Source of the DNA: a virus
Taxonomy: Duplodnaviria > Heunggongvirae > Uroviricota > Caudoviricetes
Virus record (IMG/VR): IMGVR_UViG_2698536552_000004
DNA: 10,259 nucleotides
Strand: one strand, 5' to 3'
The notes beneath the pieces were generated by a model. That model was not told the DNA's origin, made no database searches, and saw only the letters and a list, made by a program, of their open reading frames with translations. This document shows, piece after piece, positions 426-10,259 of the stretch. How positions within the stretch are numbered: position 1 is the first letter of the stretch; each line of letters begins with the position of its first letter. A program made the position numbers and the translations under genes.

Positions 426-533
426 GCGTTCATCAGCCCCCGCATTGCCGACAGGATCACAGACGGGGGGCGCAACTGGTTGTCGTTCAACTGGCCCAGC
501 TACCGTTCTTGTATCAGAGGTGTGGCTGCATGA
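426..533 (+). pseudogene. 3' remnant of the replication-module gene upstream of the helicase (likely initiator or helicase loader), interrupted by IS2
   Basis: The frame is open from the IS2 end to TGA at 531-533 (...NWLSFNWPSYRSCIRGVAA*) with no start codon. Its stop overlaps the helicase ATG as ATGA, the usual coupling between a lambdoid initiator/loader gene and its helicase. The identity of the disrupted gene is inferred, not seen. Confidence 0.35.
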
Positions 534-1921
534 CAACACCAGTCTGGCGTAATGATGACCTGGAAGGCGCTGTCATTGGCGCATTCTTTCTGCGTGGGGC
601 AGATCATGAAGTGATGGATATTCTGATCACACTACCGGCGGACATTTTTTCTGTACGAGCGTATCGGGATATCTACACAGGCATCTGCAGACAGGCCCGT
701 GTTTCAGGAGTGATTGACCCCGTGCTGTTGTGTAATGAGATGCCGGAACTTGCCCCGGTGATTACTGATACCGGGCGTAAAACCTGGGTGAAGTCTTCAC
801 TGGAGCACTATGTTGCAGCGTTGCGGCGCAATGCCGCACTGCGCGATGCAGAAAAAACACTGAATGAGGCGCTGCAGAAATTACGTGATGCGCATACCTG
901 TGAAGCAGCTGAAGATGCCCTGAAGGATGCGCAGAACATGATGGTCACACTGTCGACAGGAAAGGGCGTCATTCAGCCGGTACATATTGATGATGTGCTT
1001 CCGGAAGTGGTTGAGCGTGTTGAATGCCGGAATCAGGGGCTGGAGAAATCCAGGACGTTGATGACCGGTATTGATGAACTGGACGCAAAAACAGGCGGTA
1101 TGGAGCCCGGAGACCTGGTATTCATTGCCGCCCGTCCTTCGATGGGGAAAACCGAACTTGCGCTGGACATCATCGACAAGGTGACTGAGCAGGGGCATGG
1201 TGTGCTTCTGTTCACCATGGAGATGGCGAACATCCAGATTGGTGAACGTATGGTGTCTGCGGCTGGAGGGATGCCAGTATCACGCCTGAAATCTGTGGCT
1301 CACTTTGAAGATGAAGACTGGGCGCGTTTCTCACAAGGGGTGGGGCGGATGACCGGGCGCAATATCTGGATGGTGGACCAGGCGAACCTGACCATTGATG
1401 AGATATGCGCAACAACGAAACACCATCTGATTAAACATCCGGAAACGGCGCTGGTGGTGGTTGATTATCTCGGGCTGATAAAAACCCGAACCACGGGGCG
1501 TCATGACCTTGCCGTGGGTGAAATCTCAAAGGGGCTTAAAGGCCTGGCAAAATCCGGTGGTTTTCCGTTGATTGCGCTGAGCCAGCTCTCCCGCGGTGTG
1601 GAGTCCAGACCCAATAAACGTCCCATGAACTCAGACCTGAAAAATTCCGGAGAAATAGAGGCGGATGCAGACATCATTCTGATGCTTTACAGGGATGAAG
1701 TGTACAACCCGGATACACAGGCTACAGGCATAGCAGAAATTAATATCACGAAACAACGTAACGGTTCTCTGGGGACGATTTACCGGCGTTTTTATAACGG
1801 ACATTTTCTGCCTGTGGACCAGGAAAGCGCACAGGTTCTTTCCACCCCAATGCGGCAGCCCCAGCCGCGCAGATACAGCAATACACGTACCGACAGCAGT
1901 AAGATGGAGCGTTTCTTTTGA
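530..1921 (+). CDS. DnaB-like replicative DNA helicase (phage P22 gp12-type)
   Basis: ATG at 530 is preceded by GAGGTG at 516-521. The N-terminus has a DnaB N-domain-like motif (LEGAVIGAFFL). The C-terminal RecA-like domain carries Walker A (AARPSMGKTELAL), Walker B (ALVVVDYLGL) and the SQLSR motif (IALSQLSRGVESRPNKRP), followed by DADIILMLYRDEVYN. The ORF-track start at 389 lies inside IS2 and is rejected. Confidence 0.9.
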   Translation: MTTPVWRNDDLEGAVIGAFFLRGADHEVMDILITLPADIFSVRAYRDIYTGICRQARVSGVIDPVLLCNEMPELAPVITDTGRKTWVKSSLEHYVAALRRNAALRDAEKTLNEALQKLRDAHTCEAAEDALKDAQNMMVTLSTGKGVIQPVHIDDVLPEVVERVECRNQGLEKSRTLMTGIDELDAKTGGMEPGDLVFIAARPSMGKTELALDIIDKVTEQGHGVLLFTMEMANIQIGERMVSAAGGMPVSRLKSVAHFEDEDWARFSQGVGRMTGRNIWMVDQANLTIDEICATTKHHLIKHPETALVVVDYLGLIKTRTTGRHDLAVGEISKGLKGLAKSGGFPLIALSQLSRGVESRPNKRPMNSDLKNSGEIEADADIILMLYRDEVYNPDTQATGIAEINITKQRNGSLGTIYRRFYNGHFLPVDQESAQVLSTPMRQPQPRRYSNTRTDSSKMERFF

Positions 1922-1932
1922 ACAACCAGACA

Positions 1933-2175
1933 ATGACTTTTACCTCTGAACAATTGCGTAAACACGCGCAGGAAATGTTGCGACAGGCGGAACAACTGGA
2001 AAAAACAGGTGTAACAAAAGATGCCATTCGTCGGGATATGGTGCCAGCGCTCAGGGAACTGATGCAGGCGAAACATCGCGCACAAAAAGCGGTGGATGAG
2101 CTCGTTGATTGTGTGGCAGAGCTGGAAACCAAAGTTGGAAAGTTTGAAAAAATGGTGCAGGAGGTGCTGCGCTGA
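1933..2175 (+). CDS. hypothetical small coiled-coil protein (nin-region ORF)
   Basis: An 80-aa ORF from ATG 1933 (MTFTSEQLRK...), charged and helical with no recognisable catalytic motif. Its stop TGA at 2173-2175 overlaps the rusA ATG. The track start at 1918 is TTG and less likely. Confidence 0.5.
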   Translation: MTFTSEQLRKHAQEMLRQAEQLEKTGVTKDAIRRDMVPALRELMQAKHRAQKAVDELVDCVAELETKVGKFEKMVQEVLR

Positions 2176-2546
2176 TGCGCCATGAGTTTATTTTACCTTA
2201 TCCGCCGACGGTGAATACTTACTGGCGACGTCGTGGCAGCACATATTTTGTATCAAAAGTTGGTGAGCGTTATCGCCGTGATGTGACGCTAATTGTTCGC
2301 CAGCAGCGGCTGAAATTAAACCTGTCCGGAAGGCTGGCGATAAAGATTATTGCAGAGCCACCGGATAAGCGCCGTCGTGACCTGGACAATATCCTGAAAG
2401 CACCACTGGATGCGCTGACGCATGCCGGACTACTCATAGACGACGAGCAGTTTGATGAAATCAATATTGTGCGCGGTCAGCTCGTTCCTGGTGGGCGACT
2501 GGGCGTGAAGATTTATGAAATCACAGGTGATAACGATGGCGCGTGA
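2175..2546 (+). CDS. rusA: RusA-family Holliday junction resolvase
   Basis: [16 protein letters not shown]...YR...[30 protein letters not shown]... aligns along its whole length with E. coli RusA as I recall it, including the catalytic acidic cluster (RRRDLDN, DDEQ). RBS GAGGTG sits at 2161-2166. Confidence 0.9.
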
Positions 2547-2922
2547 TATTCAGCAGGTTATGGAACGGTGGGGGGCTTGGGCTGCAAACACTCATGAAGA
2601 TGTATCCTGGGCGTCGATCGCTGCTGGTTTTAAAGGGTTAATTCCGTCGAAAGTGAAATCACGCCCTCAGTGTTCTGATGATGATGCAATGATAATTTGT
2701 GGCTGTATGGCCCGGTTGAACAAGAAAAATCAGGATTTGCACGATTTGCTGGTGGATTATTACGTAGGTGGAATGACTTTTATGAGTCTGGCACGGAAAC
2801 ATGGGTGTTCGGATACCTGTATTGGCAAGCGCCTGCAGAAAGCGGAAGGGGTTATTGATGGCATGTTGATGATGCTTGATATCCGGCTGGAGATGGACAG
2901 ATACGTAGAACGAATTATGTAG
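2536..2922 (+). CDS. late-gene antiterminator Q (DLP12 QuuD / phage-21-like Q family)
   Basis: [35 protein letters not shown]...[16 protein letters not shown]...[23 protein letters not shown]...[24 protein letters not shown] closely resembles the short Q protein of the DLP12 cryptic prophage, from memory. RBS AGGTGA at 2524-2529 precedes ATG 2536, which overlaps the rusA 3' end. The track start at 2515 is less likely. Confidence 0.8.
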
Positions 2923-2926
2923 GTGC

Positions 2927-2956
2927 TTGACCAGACACATTGTCCGGGGCTATATT
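2927..2956 (+). promoter_or_regulatory. candidate late promoter pR' (sigma70 -35 TTGACC / -10 TATATT) immediately downstream of Q
   Basis: TTGACC at 2927-2932, an 18-nt spacer, then TATATT at 2951-2956. Position directly after the Q stop matches lambdoid pR' architecture. The Q-binding and pause elements cannot be defined without experiment. Confidence 0.5.
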
Positions 2957-3017
2957 CCTCACGCGCCAGCAAAATCTGGCGTCGGGATTGGAACCCCGGA
3001 TAGAGACCGCGACAGAC

Positions 3018-3040
3018 ACACGCCGCGAGCGTGTTTTTTA
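3018..3040 (+). terminator. intrinsic terminator (candidate tR') ending a short 6S-like leader transcript
   Basis: A 6-bp GC-rich stem (ACACGC / GCGTGT) with a 5-nt loop, followed by TTTTTTATT, lies about 55-80 nt downstream of the predicted pR' start site. Confidence 0.55.
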
Positions 3041-3167
3041 TTGTCGTATGCACGCGCACATCTGAATTATGGTGGGGCGCATGGGGGAGCTGAAAAGCTC
3101 GCCGGTCGGTTTCCCGGTAGTTCCAACCCTGTGCGTCTCACCACCCGATGATTGGAACCTGACGGTG

Positions 3168-3196
3168 TTGACAGTTTCAGGTTTGCAGTTTACATT
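3168..3196 (+). promoter_or_regulatory. candidate sigma70 promoter upstream of the ORF6N-like gene
   Basis: Consensus -35 TTGACA at 3168-3173, a 17-nt spacer, then TACATT at 3191-3196. It lies downstream of tR', so it could drive Q-independent expression. Sequence match only. Confidence 0.3.
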
Positions 3197-3402
3197 TCCC
3201 CGCGGTGCTCAAAACACCTCGAAAGCGGTATCCACACCCGATAGCCATGTGGTTTTTTTGTGTCCAGAATTCTTGGTTTATGACCGGGTGTGCGGCTAAT
3301 ACAATACCAGCAATGGAAATACGCCCGCCGACTTTCGACGGTTTTGAGCGCCCGGTCACCCTCTCAAAAGGGGTAAATCAAAATATTCGAAAGGACATGT
3401 CT

Positions 3403-3926
3403 ATGAATCGCACGTCTATTGAAAAACTCCCGTCACTTACGCATAACCATCTTCCTGTCATGACAACAGAGCTGCTGGCTGATTTGTACGGAACAGAGCG
3501 CCAGCGTTTGACAAACAATTTCAATCGAAACAAAGAACGGTTTATAGAAGGTAAACATTTTTTCCTGATAGAAGGTGATGCGTTACGAGAGTTGAAGAAC
3601 GAAAACTCTTTAAGAGTTTCTGTGAAAATTGCCCGTAACGTTCGCTCCCTCATCCTCTGGACAGAACGTGGCGCAGCCCGTCACGCCAAAATGCTCGAAA
3701 CCGATCAGGCGTGGGAAGTGTTCGAAAAACTGGAAGACTGTTATTTCAACCAGAAACAGCCACCAGCGGCACAAAACACATCTATCGAAAATGATGGATG
3801 CGCATTACTGAGCCACTTCGATAAACACGGTCAGGTTGAGTTCACGGAAAAGGTACCCGCCGATGCGATGGTATGTACTCTGGAACGGTTTAAATTTTAT
3901 CTGGAGCAACACGGGTGGATCGTTGC
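3403..3926 (+). CDS. ORF6N-domain (phage antirepressor-like) protein, N-terminal part; 3' end hidden by N-mask
   Basis: RBS AAGGA at 3391-3395 precedes ATG 3403. MNRTSIEKLP...LPVMTTELLADLYGTERQRLTNNFNRNKERFIEGKHFFLIEGDALRELK matches the ORF6N/antirepressor N-domain signature as I recall it. The frame is open into the mask starting at 3927. The track start at 3205 is rejected, as the upstream stretch has no RBS and odd composition. Confidence 0.55.
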
Positions 3927-4159
3927 NNNNNNNNNNNNNNNNNNNNNNNNNNNNNNNNNNNNNNNNNNNNNNNNNNNNNNNNNNNNNNNNNNNNNNNNNN
4001 NNNNNNNNNNNNNNNNNNNNNNNNNNNNNNNNNNNNNNNNNNNNNNNNNNNNNNNNNNNNNNNNNNNNNNNNNNNNNNNNNNNNNNNNNNNNNNNNNNNN
4101 NNNNNNNNNNNNNNNNNNNNNNNNNNNNNNNNNNNNNNNNNNNNNNNNNNNNNNNNNNN

Positions 4160-4235
4160 NNNNNNNNNNNNNNNNNGTCAGAGCGAGCGACTCATAATCG
4201 CCAGGTCGCTGGTTCAAGTCCAGCAAGGGCCACCA
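4160..4235 (+). tRNA. tRNA with CAU anticodon, ileX-like (tRNA-Ile2 or Met); 5' ~17 nt inside the N-mask, start estimated
   Basis: The visible 59 nt (4177-4235) contain anticodon loop CUCAUAA, T-arm GCTGG-TTCAAGT-CCAGC and the acceptor 3' strand plus CCA. They align to the 3' 59 nt of E. coli ileX as I recall it. The start is extrapolated assuming 76 nt. Confidence 0.7.
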
Positions 4236-4236
4236 A

Positions 4237-4313
4237 CCACCACTAGCTCATCCGGATAGAGCATCAACCTTCTAAGTTGACGGTGCGAGGTTCGAGTCCT
4301 CGGTGGTGGGCCA
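4237..4313 (+). tRNA. tRNA-Arg (anticodon UCU)
   Basis: Manual cloverleaf: acceptor CCACCAC/GTGGTGG, D-stem GCTC/GAGC, anticodon stem TCAAC/GTTGA with loop CTTCTAA, T-arm CGAGG-TTCGAGT-CCTCG, discriminator G and encoded CCA. It resembles the argU-type tRNAs carried by lambdoid and Stx phages. Confidence 0.8.
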
Positions 4314-4315
4314 GC

Positions 4316-4391
<76 letters not shown>

Positions 4392-4394
4392 TAT

Positions 4395-4469
<75 letters not shown>

Positions 4470-4893
4470 GCGAGATTTGAGACGAAGGTTGTTATTTGCA
4501 CTGACACAATATTGTGTGGGAATGTCTGACTCCTTACCATCTCCTGTTCTGTGATGTTGTTTTGTTGCAGTTCCAGTGCTCTTTTTTCAGCACCAGNNNN
4601 NNNNNNNNNNNNNNNNNNNNNNNNNNNNNNNNNNNNNNNNNNNNNNNNNNNNNNNNNNNNNNNNNNNNNNNNNNNNNNNNNNNNNNNNNNNNNNNNNNNN
4701 NNNNNNNNNNNNNNNNNNNNNNNNNNNNNNNNNNNNNNNNNNNNNNNNNNNNNNNNNNNNNNNNNNNNNNNNNNNNNNNNNNNNNNNNNNNNNNNNNNNN
4801 NNNNNNNNNNNNNNNNNNNNNNNNNNNNNNNNNNNNNNNNNNNNNNATGGCCTTTTTTCTTTCCGATAGCACAGGTCTGTCGGGGGGCGGGAT

Positions 4894-5109
4894 ATGTATC
4901 AGATGGAAAAAATATCAACAGGCATTGCCTACGGCACCTCCGCCGGCAGTGCCGGCTACTGGTTTTTGCAGTGGTTGGATCAGGTCAGTCCATCACAGTG
5001 GGCTGCGATTGGTGTGCTGGGAAGTCTGCTTCTGGGGCTTCTGACTTATCTGACAAATCTGTATTTCAAAATAAGAGAAGACAAGCGTAAGGCTGCGAGA
5101 GGTGAATAA
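4894..5109 (+). CDS. class II holin/antiholin (phage 21 S21-type pinholin, DLP12 EssD-like) with dual start
   Basis: The 71-aa product [71 protein letters not shown] has two transmembrane segments and a charged C-terminus. Met1 and Met4 form the dual-start motif. Its stop overlaps the endolysin ATG as TAATG. Confidence 0.9.
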
Positions 5110-5606
5110 TGTCGCCATCATTACGCAAGGCTGTTGCAGCTGCTATTGGTGGTGGGGCTGTTGCTATAGCATCTGTGTTAATCACTGGCCCAGGTGGTAA
5201 CGATGGTCTGGAAGGTGTCAGCTACATACCATACAAAGATATCATTGGTGTATGGACTGTATGTCACGGACACACCGGAAAAGACATCATGCTCGGTAAA
5301 ACGTATACCGAAGCAGAATGCAAAGCCCTCCTGAATAAAGACCTTGCCACTGTCGCCAGACAAATTAACCCGTACATCAAAGTCGATATACCGGAAACAA
5401 CGCGCGGCGCTCTTTACTCGTTCGTTTACAACGTGGGCGCTGGCAATTTCAGAACATCGACGCTTCTTCGCAAAATAAACCAGGGCGATATCAAAGGCGC
5501 ATGTGACCAGCTACGTCGCTGGACATATGCTGGCGGTAAGCAATGGAAAGGGCTGATGACCCGTCGTGAGATTGAGCGTGAAGTCTGTTTGTGGGGGCAG
5601 CAATGA
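5109..5606 (+). CDS. SAR endolysin (T4-lysozyme-like muramidase, phage 21 R21 / DLP12 RrrD-like)
   Basis: The N-terminus has a Gly/Ala-rich signal-anchor-release segment ([20 protein letters not shown]). A catalytic Glu-Asp-Thr arrangement follows (LEGVSY...[14 protein letters not shown]). Position directly after the holin. Confidence 0.9.
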
Positions 5607-6067
5607 GCAGAGTCACCGCGATTATCTCCGCTCTGGTTATCTGCATCATCGTCTGCCTGTCATGGGCTGTTAATCATTACCGTGATAACGCCATTACCTA
5701 CAAAGAGCAGCGCGACAAAAACGCAAGAGAACTGAAGCTGGCGAACGCAACCATTACTGACATGCAGCAGAGACAGCGTGATGTTAATGCACTCGATGCT
5801 AAATACACGAAGGAGTTAGCTGATGCGAAAGCTGAAAATGAAACTCTGCGCGCTGATGTTGCCGCTGGTCGTCGTCGGTTGCACATCAAAGCAGTCTGTC
5901 AGTCAGTGCGTGAAGCCACCACCGCCTCCGGCGTGGATAATGCAACCAGCCCCCGACTGGCAGACACCGCTGAACGGGATTATTTCACCCTCAGAGAGCG
6001 GCTGATGACGATGCAGATGCAACTGGAAGGGGCACAGGAGTATATCCGCACTCAGTGCATTAAGTAG
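5603..6067 (+). CDS. Rz i-spanin (inner-membrane spanin subunit)
   Basis: ATG 5603 overlaps the endolysin stop as ATGA. The product has an N-terminal transmembrane segment and a coiled-coil periplasmic domain ([23 protein letters not shown]...). The track GTG start at 5591 is less likely. Confidence 0.85.
5823..6005 (+). CDS. Rz1 o-spanin (outer-membrane lipoprotein) embedded in the +1 frame of Rz
   Basis: [60 protein letters not shown] has a signal peptide with a lipobox (VVGC) and a proline-rich mature domain. RBS AGGAG at 5811-5815. It lies wholly inside Rz, the classic lambda-type arrangement. Confidence 0.85.
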
Positions 6068-6109
6068 CCTTTTTATCGTGGTAAACATTTCGCAGGGTAT
6101 GAGGTATTT

Positions 6110-6416
6110 ATGCCATCACTAATCCCACGTGCCTGCCGTAAGCGTGGATGTGCAGGTACAACCACAGACAGTTCGGGTTACTGCGATAAACATCGCGGTG
6201 AAGGCTGGGTGCAGCACCAGCGCGGACTGAGCCGCCACCAGCGTGGCTATGGCTCAAAATGGACGGTGATTCGTGCCCGTATTCTGAAGCGCGATAAAGG
6301 TCTGTGTCAGTTGTGTCTGCGTGTCGGTGTGGTGAGCGAGGCGAAAACCGTCGACCACATCATCCCGAAAGCGCATGGCGGAACAGACGCAGACAGCAAC
6401 CTGCAGAGTCTGTGCT
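6110..6416 (+). CDS. HNH endonuclease (terminase-associated, HK97 gp74-like); 3' end hidden by N-mask
   Basis: RBS GAGGT precedes ATG 6110. Cys-rich N-terminus (CRKRGCAG...YCDKHR) and HNH core (DHIIPKAHGGTDADSNLQSLC). It sits immediately upstream of the terminase genes. The true stop lies inside 6417-6680. Confidence 0.8.
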
Positions 6417-6680
6417 NNNNNNNNNNNNNNNNNNNNNNNNNNNNNNNNNNNNNNNNNNNNNNNNNNNNNNNNNNNNNNNNNNNNNNNNNNNNNNNNNNNN
6501 NNNNNNNNNNNNNNNNNNNNNNNNNNNNNNNNNNNNNNNNNNNNNNNNNNNNNNNNNNNNNNNNNNNNNNNNNNNNNNNNNNNNNNNNNNNNNNNNNNNN
6601 NNNNNNNNNNNNNNNNNNNNNNNNNNNNNNNNNNNNNNNNNNNNNNNNNNNNNNNNNNNNNNNNNNNNNNNNNNNNNNNN

Positions 6681-7099
6681 AGCGAGCCCTGAACAAAGAT
6701 GAACCTGTTTTTACGCCCATCAAAGGTGTTGAGCCACCAGAGTGGTTCGCTGAAGAAGATCTCCCTCTCGCCACGATCATGTGGCAACTGACAACCAAAG
6801 AACTCTGCGGTCAGGGCCTGCTGTGCGTGACTGACCTGGCGGTACTTGAGCGGTGGTGCGTGGCCTATGAGTTCTGGCGACGTGCCGTGAAAAATATTGC
6901 CATACAGGGCAACACCATCACCGGTGCAATGGGCGGCAGGGTCAAAAATCCGGAGCTGACCGCCAAAAAAGAACAGGAGTCCGAGATGAGCAGCACGGGG
7001 GCAATGCTCGGACTCGACCCCAGCAGCCGCCAGCGTCTGATTGGCCTGGCGGGGCAGAAGAAAGCCACTAACCCGTTTCTGAAAATTATCGAATCATGA
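6681..7099 (+). CDS. terminase small subunit (P27 family); 5' end hidden by N-mask
   Basis: The visible product begins ...[29 protein letters not shown]...WRRAVKNI..., resembling the N-terminal region of P27-family TerS. Its stop TGA at 7097-7099 overlaps the TerL ATG. The real start is probably about 15-20 codons inside the mask. Confidence 0.75.
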
Positions 7100-8829
7100 G
7101 CCGGAAATCTTACCCCAACGTAAATGCTGCAAATCAGTATGCCCGGGATGTCGTGCGCGGAAAGATTGTTGCCTGCCAGTTTGTGATTCAGGCCTGCCAG
7201 CGCCATCTTGATGACCTGATGGCGGAAAAAAGTAAGTCGTTTCGTTACCGCTTCGACAAGGACCTGGCTGAACGGGCCGCGAAATTTATTCAGCTGTTGC
7301 CGCACACCAAGGGGGAGTGGGCATTCAAACGGATGCCCATCACGCTGGAGCCGTGGCAGCTATTTGTGATCTGCTGTGCGTTTGGCTGGGTCAATAAAGG
7401 CACCCGGTTGCGCCGCTTCCGGGAGGTGTACACCGAAATCCCCCGTAAGAACGGCAAATCAGCAATCTCTGCCGGTGTTGCCCTGTATTGTTTTGCCTGT
7501 GATAACGAGTTTGGCGCGGAAGTGTATTCCGGTGCCACGACAGAGAAACAGGCGTGGGAAGTCTTTCGCCCGGCGCGACTGATGTGTAAACGCACACCCA
7601 TGCTGACGGAAGCGTTCGGGATTGAGGTTAACGCCTCAAACATGAACCGTCCGGAGGATGGCGCGCGGTTTGAACCGCTGATCGGCAACCCAGGTGATGG
7701 TTCATCACCCCACTGTGCCGTGGTTGATGAATATCACGAGCATGCCACCGATGCGCTTTATACCACAATGCTTACCGGGATGGGGGCGCGACGTCAGCCA
7801 CTGATGTGGGCCATCACCACCGCCGGGTACAACATTGAGGGGCCGTGCTACGACAAGCGGCGGGAAGTCATCGAGATGCTCAACGGCTCGGTGCCTAACG
7901 ATGAACTGTTCGGGATCATCTATACCGTTGATGAAGGTGACGACTGGACCGGCCCGCAGGTGCTGGAAAAAGCCAATCCAAATATTGGCGTGTCGGTTTA
8001 TCGCGAATTTTTGTTAAGTCAGCAGCAGCGTGCGAAAAATAACGCCCGTCTGGCAAACGTCTTTAAAACAAAACACCTCAATATCTGGGTGTCGGCGCGT
8101 TCGGCGTATTTCAACTTGGTGAGCTGGCAGAGCTGCGAGGATAAATCACTGACCCTTGAGCAGTTCGAGGGGCAGCCGTGCATTCTGGCCTTTGACCTGG
8201 CGCGTAAGCTGGATATGAACAGCATGGCGCGACTTTATACCCGCGAGATTGACGGTAAAACGCATTACTACAGTGTGGCCCCGCGTTTCTGGGTACCGTA
8301 TGACACGGTGTACAGCGTCGAGAAAAATGAAGATCGACGGACAGCCGAACGCTTTCAGAAATGGGTGGAAATGGGCGTTCTGACCGTTACCGATGGTGCG
8401 GAGGTGGATTATCGCTACATCCTCGAGGAGGCCAAAGCGGCGAACAAAATCAGCCCGGTCAGTGAGTCACCCATCGACCCCTTCGGGGCGACCGGGTTGT
8501 CACATGACCTTGCTGATGAAGACCTGAATCCCGTCACTATCGTCCAGAACTTCACCAATATGTCCGATCCGATGAAAGAGCTGGAAGCAGCGATTGAATC
8601 GGGACGTTTTCATCATGACGGCAATCCCATCATGACCTGGTGTATCGGCAACGTGGTCGGCAAAAACATGCCGGGTAACGATGATGTGGTGAAACCCGTC
8701 AAAGAGCAGGCGGAAAACAAAATCGATGGTGCAGTTGCGCTGATTATGGCGGTTGGCAGAGCCATGCTGTACGAGAAAGAAGACACGCTGTCTGACCACA
8801 TTGAGTCCTACGGGATCCGCTCGCTTTAA
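7096..8829 (+). CDS. terminase large subunit (HK97-like TerL, ATPase + nuclease)
   Basis: A 577-aa ORF translationally coupled to TerS. Size, position and the overall ATPase-then-nuclease layout are typical of TerL. No antisense ORF of comparable quality. Confidence 0.9.
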
Positions 8830-8840
8830 CTGAGGTAATT

Positions 8841-9023
8841 ATGATCATGCTGATTCTCGCGCCTCTGGTGGGCGTGCTGGGTGCGCTTTTGCTGGCGTAT
8901 GGTGCCTGGCTGATTTATCCCCCGGCGGGTTTTGTTGTTGCCGGGGCGCTGTGCCTGTTCTGGTCGTGGCTGGTGGCGCGATATCTCGACCGTACACGGC
9001 AGTCTGTCGGCGGAGGTAAATAG
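8841..9023 (+). CDS. small hypothetical membrane protein (two predicted TM helices) between terminase and portal
   Basis: [65 protein letters not shown] at 8832-8836 precedes ATG 8841 (a second ATG lies at 8847). Its stop TAG 9021-9023 abuts the portal GTG. The coding call rests on ORF context only. Confidence 0.45.
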
Positions 9024-10179
9024 TGTTCTTTTCGGGATTATTTCAACGAAAAAGCGATGTGCCGGTGACCACGCCAGCAGAACTGCTGATGCTATCGGGC
9101 TGTCATACGACACCTATACCGGAAAGCGGATCAGTAGCCAGCGGGCCATGCGCCTGACGGCGGTCTATTCTTGCGTCAGGGTGCTGGCAGAGTCTGTTGG
9201 TATGCTGCCCTGCAGTCTCTACAAAATCAGCGGTACCCTGAAAACACGGGCGGTGGATGAACGACTGCATAAGTTGGTTTCGGCAAAACCTAATGGCTAC
9301 ATGACACCGCAGGAATTCTGGGAGCTGGTTATTGTCTGCCTGTGTCTACGGGGGAATTTTTACGCCTACAAGGTAAAGGCACTGGGAGAAGTGGTGGAGC
9401 TTCTTCCGATAGATCCGGGCTGTGTGGAACCGAAGCTGAACAGCCAGTGGCAGCCGGTTTATCAGGTGACGTTTCCGGATGGTTCCGTGGATGTGTTGAC
9501 CCAGAATGAAATCTGGCATGTGCGCACCCTGACGCTGGATGGACTTGTCGGGCTGAATCCCATTGCGTATGCGCGTGAGGCCATTTCACTGGCAGCGGCA
9601 ACCGAGGAGCACGGTGCCAGGTTGTTTAGTAATGGTGCGGTGACATCCGGTGTGTTGCGTACGGAACAAAAGCTCACGCCGGATGCTTACGAGCGTCTGA
9701 AGAAAGATTTTGAGGAGTGTCACACGGGGCTTGGCAATGCTCACCGCCCGATGATTCTGGAAATGGGGCTGGACTGGAAGTCGATGGCGCTGAACGCCGA
9801 GGACAGTCAGTTCCTGGAAACCCGCAAGTTTCAGCTGGAAGAAATCTGTCGTCTGTTCCGGGTGCCGTTGCACATGGTGCAGAACACCGATCGCGCCACC
9901 TTCAACAATATCGAAGAGCTGGGGCTGGGATTTATCAACTATTCACTGGTGCCGTATCTGACCCGCATCGAACAGCGGATCAACACCGGACTGGTACGAA
10001 AAAGTAAGCAGGGCGTTTATTACGCCAAATTTAACGCCGGGGCGTTACTGCGCGGGGATATGAAGTCCCGTTTTGAAGCCTACGCCACCGGGATCAACTG
10101 GGGAATTTACTCTTCCAATGACTGCCGCGACCTGGAAGATATGAATCCGCGTCCCGGTGGTGTAATGCCGATCAGTTAA
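9023..10179 (+). CDS. portal protein (HK97 family); N-terminal ~20-45 codons in a different frame from the body, so apparent frameshift or possible pseudogene
   Basis: GGAGG at 9012-9016 and GTG at 9023 open a frame-2 ORF (MFFSGLFQRKSDVPVTTPAEL...) that stops at about 9160. The long portal body runs in frame 1 to TAA at 10177-10179 (...AVYSCVRVLAESVGMLP...ARLFSNGAVTSGVL...). Frame 1 has no RBS-associated start before ATG 9148. The track start at TTG 8932 translates a Cys/Trp/Arg-rich stretch overlapping the upstream gene and is rejected. Confidence 0.6.
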
Positions 10180-10211
10180 GGATCAGTTGACCGATCCAGT
10201 GGCTGTGTAAG

Positions 10212-10246
10212 AATCCGGAAACGCTCACTTGTTTCCGGATTTTTTT
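10212..10246 (+). terminator. strong rho-independent terminator downstream of the portal gene
   Basis: A perfect 10-bp stem (ATCCGGAAAC / GTTTCCGGAT) with an 8-nt loop, followed by TTTTTT. Confidence 0.6.
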
Positions 10247-10259
10247 ATGCACATTGGAC

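Follow-up and report, generated by a model that had tools for sequence, protein, structure and literature searches.

The portal protein gene of a decayed P27/SfIV/ST64B/e14-like prophage in Shigella sonnei has, with a probability that we put at about 94%, been inactivated by a fixed one-base deletion and is a genuine portal pseudogene. It occupies the right-hand end of the window, the whole 10,259-nt stretch of DNA analysed here (IMG/VR record IMGVR_UViG_2698536552_000004), which is itself a fragment of such a prophage. The gene is missing one G at codon 22, between positions 9085 and 9086, and translation from the native GTG at 9023 would therefore leave the portal frame after 21 residues and stop at 9157. 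IS4 has independently hit the same gene after codon 380, generating a 12-bp target duplication, and IS2 truncates the element at the left. In the sequence of events that we propose, a later recombination between IS4 copies separated the 5′ part of the portal gene from its 3′ end and from the head and tail genes. Presumably no functional portal is made, and the element would be unable to form particles. The features of the portal region are as follows.

8841–9023, + strand: ymfR, encoding a 60-aa membrane protein, from the list of open reading frames; its TAG stop and the portal GTG share one base (TAGTG).
9012–9016, + strand: portal Shine–Dalgarno sequence GGAGG, with a 6-nt spacer to GTG 9023, invariant in comparison with three intact homologues.
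9023–9085, + strand: portal codons 1–21 in the original frame, MFFSGLFQRKSDVPVTTPAEL.
9023–9157, + strand: truncated frame of 44 codons, MFFSGLFQRKSDVPVTTPAELLMLSGCHTTPIPESGSVASGPCA, with TGA at 9155–9157 and 23 codons out of frame.
9083–9088, + strand: site of the 1-bp deletion, the G of an ancestral CTG-GCT being lost between 9085 and 9086, in codon 22.
9086–10162, + strand: portal body, codons 22–380, in the -1 frame, with the whole Phage_portal domain; codon 22 lacks its first base.
9148–10179, + strand: open reading frame from the internal Met43, 343 aa, with its stop inside IS4 and its last five residues, VMPIS, derived from IS4.

That the body of this gene belongs to the HK97 portal family is clear from the 343-aa product, which exceeds the curated cut-offs of both PF04860 (E = 1.7e-107, 359.8 bits against a cut-off of 39.1, with the match at residues 5–331 of 343) and TIGR01537, portal_HK97 (258.9 bits against 112.05, over nearly the entire profile). 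The gene context agrees with the order TerL–ymfR–portal upstream, followed in the window by IS4; prohead protease and major capsid genes lie downstream of the portal gene in its relatives and, after IS4, in the scaffold L019. A single uninterrupted portal reading frame of about 413 aa is not present, as it is interrupted by the frameshift at codon 22 and by IS4 after codon 380, and the gene is a pseudogene of the family and not a functional member of it.

The preliminary description of this DNA had proposed that a strong ribosome-binding site and the GTG at 9023 open a portal N-terminus which ends after about 45 codons, the body of the protein continuing in the -1 frame with no start codon of its own before ATG 9148. 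Each of these points holds. GGAGG precedes the GTG, and 20 of the 21 residues encoded before the deletion are identical to the N-termini of intact portals (phiP27, Escherichia coli A36 and SfIV); the frame from the GTG comprises 44 codons; and the body frame, which is open from 8914 to 10179, has before ATG 9148 only three possible start codons, all of them TTGs at 8932–8938, inside ymfR. The interval 9023–9157 is open in both frames, and joining them needs a -1 shift. The product of the 44-codon frame has no Pfam match, and the 44-aa peptide, with either V or M as its first residue, is absent from called-gene records; gene callers evidently skip it.

To locate the lesion, we aligned window positions 8990–9200 with phiP27 (NC_003356), the prophage of E. 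coli A36 and Shigella phage SfIV. The alignment with these three intact relatives contains exactly one gap column. The relatives read GAGCTGGCGGA(G/T)GCT where the window has GAACTG-CTGATGCT, or, in codons, GAG CTG GCG GA(G/T) GCT against GAA CTG -CT GAT GCT; homologues thus have the forms CTG-GCG/GCT-GA and the window CTG-CT-GA. Without the extra G, the window sequence at the deletion is CTGCTGATG. Re-inserting one G yields ELADAIG, the same residues as in SfIV, and a frame of 380 codons, of which 371 (97.6%) encode the same residue as in A36 and 370 the same as in phiP27. The earlier suggestions that a single-base indel would join the two frames and that the missing base lies near 9083–9088 are both borne out, the latter now narrowed to a G between 9085 and 9086. 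A break in the frame by one base relative to intact orthologues is a deterministic sequence difference and not a statistical pattern.

The 21 codons upstream of the gap are themselves informative. Six of them differ from the relatives, five only synonymously, the exception being V13 in place of A13; this predominance of synonymous differences indicates that the 21 N-terminal codons are genuine coding sequence of the family. In addition, a phmmer comparison of the HK97 portal (8cez) with the intact phiP27 portal (E = 1.5e-53) covers phiP27 residues 17–387 and, as it begins at residue 17, places the frameshift inside portal-homologous sequence.

In phiP27, A36 and SfIV alike, a ymfR-like open reading frame is followed by a portal gene of 1242 nt (413 aa) that starts at the homologous GTG, and the ymfR–portal arrangement is likewise annotated in phiP27, E. 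coli A36 and the e14 element of E. coli K-12. A portal homologue occurs in 1384–1387 genomes of the E. coli complete-genome collection; all the matches inspected there, 40 spread across the ranking and the 25 best, are one base longer than the query and annotated as phage portal protein. The phage homologues among the matches are likewise one base longer, except for phi467, which has other indels. Homologous portals that start at ATG 9148 and bear no similarity to the peptide encoded upstream, which the preliminary description had named as evidence that would speak against a frameshift, were not what we found: homologues start at the GTG and share the N-terminal residues.

The closest comparison is with the portal L38 of the Stx2e phage phiP27 (NP_543090.1) and that of A36 (WP_240745495.1, neighbour of WP_240745496). 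Both lie in the same order as in the window (HNH endonuclease, TerS, TerL, ymfR, portal), with the same overlap between the GTG start and the ymfR stop, and both are 93.6–93.7% identical to the window in DNA and 97.4–97.6% identical to the repaired protein over 380 aa. Unlike the window gene, which is one base short at codon 22 and cut by IS4 after codon 380, each is an intact single-frame gene for a 413-aa protein, with prohead protease and capsid genes downstream.

Is the missing base real? A sequencing or assembly error, by which the true genome would have one more base and an intact portal 5′ end, draws some plausibility from the fact that single-base indels are the commonest assembly error, and from the private indels that a few assemblies do have nearby, in the terminase region. 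Against it stands the recurrence of the lesion. Positions 9023–9160 are base-for-base identical in 20 of 20 loci fetched from NCBI assemblies and in 6 of 6 IMG/VR contigs (all those containing the pattern), that is, in all 26 related loci, which were fetched independently, and in most of these the identity is 100% from 6681 to 10259. Three of the assemblies could be traced to S. sonnei strains: CP000038 is Ss046, whose genome of 2004–2005 was presumably obtained by Sanger shotgun sequencing, CP022457 is 2015C-3566, and CP037997 is FC1653, a MinION and Ion Torrent hybrid assembly. None of the assemblies examined has an extra base at the deletion site. The deleted base belongs to a GG dinucleotide and not to a homopolymer, the nearest runs being T4 at 9029–9032 and A5 at 9049–9053.

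At the protein level, at least 1000 contigs encode the 343-aa product under the name 'portal protein [Shigella sonnei]', and the named members of its protein cluster are all from S. sonnei. The exact product occurs in 1695 blocks of the assembly collection, in which the exact TerL product occurs in 4305 blocks. The private indels look different. In the region homologous to window positions 6681–8829, L007 and L011 have three gaps each and L024 has one; these gaps of 1–3 bases, which are probably long-read errors, cause TerS or TerL to be called as two genes. Being private to single loci, they have the pattern of sporadic error, unlike the portal deletion, which is common to all assemblies examined.

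An identical lesion across assemblies, traced S. sonnei strains and a hybrid assembly therefore argues for a real mutation, and we regard an error as exceedingly improbable. The preliminary description had left the choice between an error and an inactivating mutation in a defective prophage; the first branch falls, and the second stands, if anything understated. The deletion is present in every S. sonnei assembly examined and is probably fixed in the lineage. No GTDB species-representative genome matched an exact 43-nt pattern spanning the deletion, which would fit S. sonnei not having a species representative of its own there and has no bearing on the reality of the lesion. The un-frameshifted form of the allele would read CAACGAAAAAGCGATGTGCCGGTGACC followed by CTGGCTGATGC; searches for such a copy with patterns just upstream and downstream of the deletion returned from IMG/VR only the same six frameshifted contigs, and there were no matches in JGI metagenomes.

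A real deletion could still be compatible with a full-length portal if ribosomes changed frame. Programmed -1 frameshifting, or another form of recoding, would find both frames open across 9023–9157 and a required shift of the right sense, -1. However, the 0 frame of 9023–9157 lacks any X XXY YYZ heptamer, and phiP27, SfIV, A36 and every inspected E. coli homologue have the gene in a single frame, which means that a shift is not conserved in the family; moreover, the gene is truncated by IS4 in any case. With no slippery heptamer and no shift in the homologues, we rejected programmed frameshifting, to which we give almost no chance.

A further alternative takes ATG 9148 as the true start, with an N-terminally short portal fragment being expressed, possibly by termination–reinitiation, and retaining some activity. 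In principle, a truncated product with the full Pfam domain could be made from this ATG. The 343-aa product includes the complete PF04860 match and nearly the whole of TIGR01537, gene callers report the open reading frame, and the TGA at 9155–9157 lies 5 nt beyond the ATG (ATGCGCCTGA, 9148–9157), a geometry compatible with translational coupling. This proximity makes some termination–reinitiation conceivable, although no Shine–Dalgarno sequence precedes the ATG. In intact homologues, however, translation always begins at the upstream GTG and residues 1–42 are conserved; of these, residues 17–42 align with the solved HK97 portal. At the other end of the protein, the 33 C-terminal residues are replaced by five from IS4, and the protease, capsid and tail genes whose products would be its partners are not adjacent in complete genomes. 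Nor can conservation of the fragment be taken as a sign of selection, as S. sonnei is too clonal for that. On balance, we consider a retained activity of this kind very unlikely.

We also formulated a more specific and highly speculative version, in which the fragment from Met43 to residue 380, with its five IS4 residues, would be translated by termination–reinitiation and retained as a dominant-negative subunit that poisons the portal rings of superinfecting phages. The portal DNA of SfI, SfII, SfIV and P27-like phages is 88–94% identical, and, if the idea were true, a dominant-negative portal subunit would represent a prophage-remnant defence against these phages. We think it very unlikely.

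The reading that we favour, an inactivated portal pseudogene, gains a second lesion from IS4.

10151–10162, + strand: IS4 target site GTCCCGGTGGTG, the left copy of a 12-bp target duplication.
10163–10259, + strand: left end of IS4, TAATGCCGATCAG..., the last 97 bases of the window, which cuts the portal gene after codon 380 of 413.

Portal homology ends at 10162. From about 10158 to the end of the window, the sequence is 100% identical to IS4 (InsG) in two phage records, and S. sonnei loci have an IS4 transposase (Nterm_IS4, DDE_Tnp_1) annotated a short way downstream. IS4 generates target-site duplications of 11–13 bp. The terminal sequence and a 12-bp repeat within this range are both present, as GTCCCGGTGGTG occurs on both sides of IS4, at 10151–10162 in the window and at 4197–4208 in L019. 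Beyond the right end of IS4, that scaffold continues with GTCCCGGTGGTG, the 3′ end of the portal gene and then the genes for prohead protease, major capsid and tail, from which we conclude that IS4 first entered by simple insertion, duplicating 12 bp of target.

Complete S. sonnei genomes look different on the right-hand side. Beyond the IS4 right end they have one of two host contexts, neither of them with the 12-bp repeat. One is bamE-recN-nadK, where IS4 often contains a further IS2-like element, and the other is raiA-pheL-pheA-tyrA-aroF; the loci compared for this region were L004–L013 and L019–L025. Host genes that follow IS4 with no repeat imply that IS4–IS4 recombination detached the structural module and that the region has been rearranged from strain to strain.

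L019, an IMG/VR scaffold, has oddities of its own. It contains an N at 2819, and its stretch 2433–2818 is duplicated from 4197 onward with three mismatches; the regions concerned are 2433–2860 and 4169–4600, where a copy of the portal gene's 3′ end and the start of the protease gene that is free of IS4 duplicates the copy that follows IS4. The IS4 hairpin loop is also inverted relative to the window, aatccggaaacAAGTGAGCgtttccgg against aatccggaaacGCTCACTTgtttccgg (window 10203–10229). These features probably reflect a mis-join or a second related prophage. Read as a frameshifted copy without IS4, the scaffold would have ordered the two lesions in time; given the N at 2819 and the duplicated stretch, we rejected that use and relied on L019 only for the IS4 right junction and the target duplication.

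The portal gene is the last of a series of phage genes that begins beside another insertion sequence.

1–425, + strand: 3′ end of IS2, marking the left boundary of the prophage fragment; the C-terminus of TnpB/InsD is reached at 414, and the terminus is ...GGGGCAAATCCA.
389–1921: DnaB-family helicase.
4237–4469: tRNA cluster Arg-TCT, Thr-TGT, Gly-TCC.
7096–8829, + strand: terminase large subunit, intact with 577 aa (Pfam TerL_ATPase and TerL_nuclease), immediately upstream as in the intact relatives.

The IS2 TnpB assignment is given by NCBIfam NF006918 (residues 176–301 of 301, E = 3.8e-84), and ...GGGGCAAATCCA is what we take to be the IS2 right terminus. RusA and a Q-like antiterminator lie between the helicase and the tRNA cluster, after which come holin, lysozyme and Rz genes and then those for an HNH endonuclease and the small and large terminase subunits. 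With IS2 on the left and IS4 on the right, the window thus contains a prophage fragment of about 9.7 kb (426–10162) between two insertion sequences. The earlier proposal that the IS2 insertion together with the portal lesion marks a defective prophage is supported, and the list of lesions is now longer, including IS4 in the portal gene, host genes beyond it, and DNA of non-phage origin beyond IS2 on the left.

Several further observations concern the neighbourhood and the quality of the sequence. In L018 (1–4660), the place of phage early genes upstream of a full IS2 is taken by a 502-aa autotransporter/adhesin-like open reading frame that IS2 interrupts, together with a short invertase-like fragment and a second open reading frame, of 298 aa. 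In the window, another tRNA-like 3′ part lies at 4177–4236, with the anticodon region CTCATAA, its 5′ part being hidden by a run of N. The three N runs, at 3927–4176, 4597–4846 and 6417–6680 (250, 250 and 264 nt), do not preserve length, the true sequence between their flanks in otherwise identical S. sonnei loci being 247, 506 and 241 nt. Coordinates and open reading frames that cross these runs are therefore artefacts, an example being the apparent HNH–TerS fusion at 6110–7099. From TerS to IS4, frameshift included, the IMG/VR contigs L014 (1–9006) and L016 (1–1204) match the window at 100% identity; their lysis region is only 98.5% identical, and the upstream arm of L014 is entirely different, which suggests that this dead late region occurs either in a mosaic or in the context of a second lineage.

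Two comparisons help to place the gene. The HK97 portal gp3 (PDB 8cez/8fql), the founder of PF04860 and TIGR01537, belongs to the homologous fold family and is distant in sequence; it makes a functional dodecamer, but no full-length subunit can be encoded by the window gene. Much nearer is the cryptic prophage e14 of E. coli K-12, a member of the same phage family with 86% DNA identity and the same ymfR–portal junction. Like the window, e14 is a defective prophage with a remnant of a portal gene, and its terminase and structural genes are truncated. The e14 portal has an internal deletion, is fused to a baseplate gene and is annotated as 'missing C-terminus'; the lesions in the window are a 1-bp deletion and an IS4 insertion, and not the internal deletion of e14.

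The expansion of insertion sequences in Shigella (IS1, IS2, IS4, IS600 and IS911), along with pseudogenisation and rearrangements mediated by these elements, is well documented (PMC7373316, PMC8072062). Bounded by IS2 and IS4, and with alternative host contexts on its right, the fragment resembles this mode of decay; the portal frameshift differs from it in being a point deletion and not an insertion-sequence event.

The locus entered public databases with the Ss046 genome, but its description there is poor. Its Ss046 annotation, AAZ89394.1 (UniRef100_Q3YYL8), is a 414-aa 'putative portal protein' that spans L025 6840–8084, equivalent to window 8935–10179, and starts in the body frame at a TTG inside ymfR. 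As far as the deletion site, its first 50 or so residues come from reading ymfR and then the start of the portal gene out of frame, and this N-terminus is an annotation artefact of the frameshift. Later public records have a 343-aa or 'partial' portal protein. The records thus mislabel the locus, and none alerts the user to the frameshift and the cut by IS4.

For the biology of S. sonnei, the lesions imply that the element is not an inducible phage. The locus is an instance of ordinary prophage decay in an IS-rich, genome-reducing pathogen and matters little beyond annotation hygiene. As the lesion is found in every S. sonnei assembly examined, it could nonetheless serve as a stable marker of the lineage.
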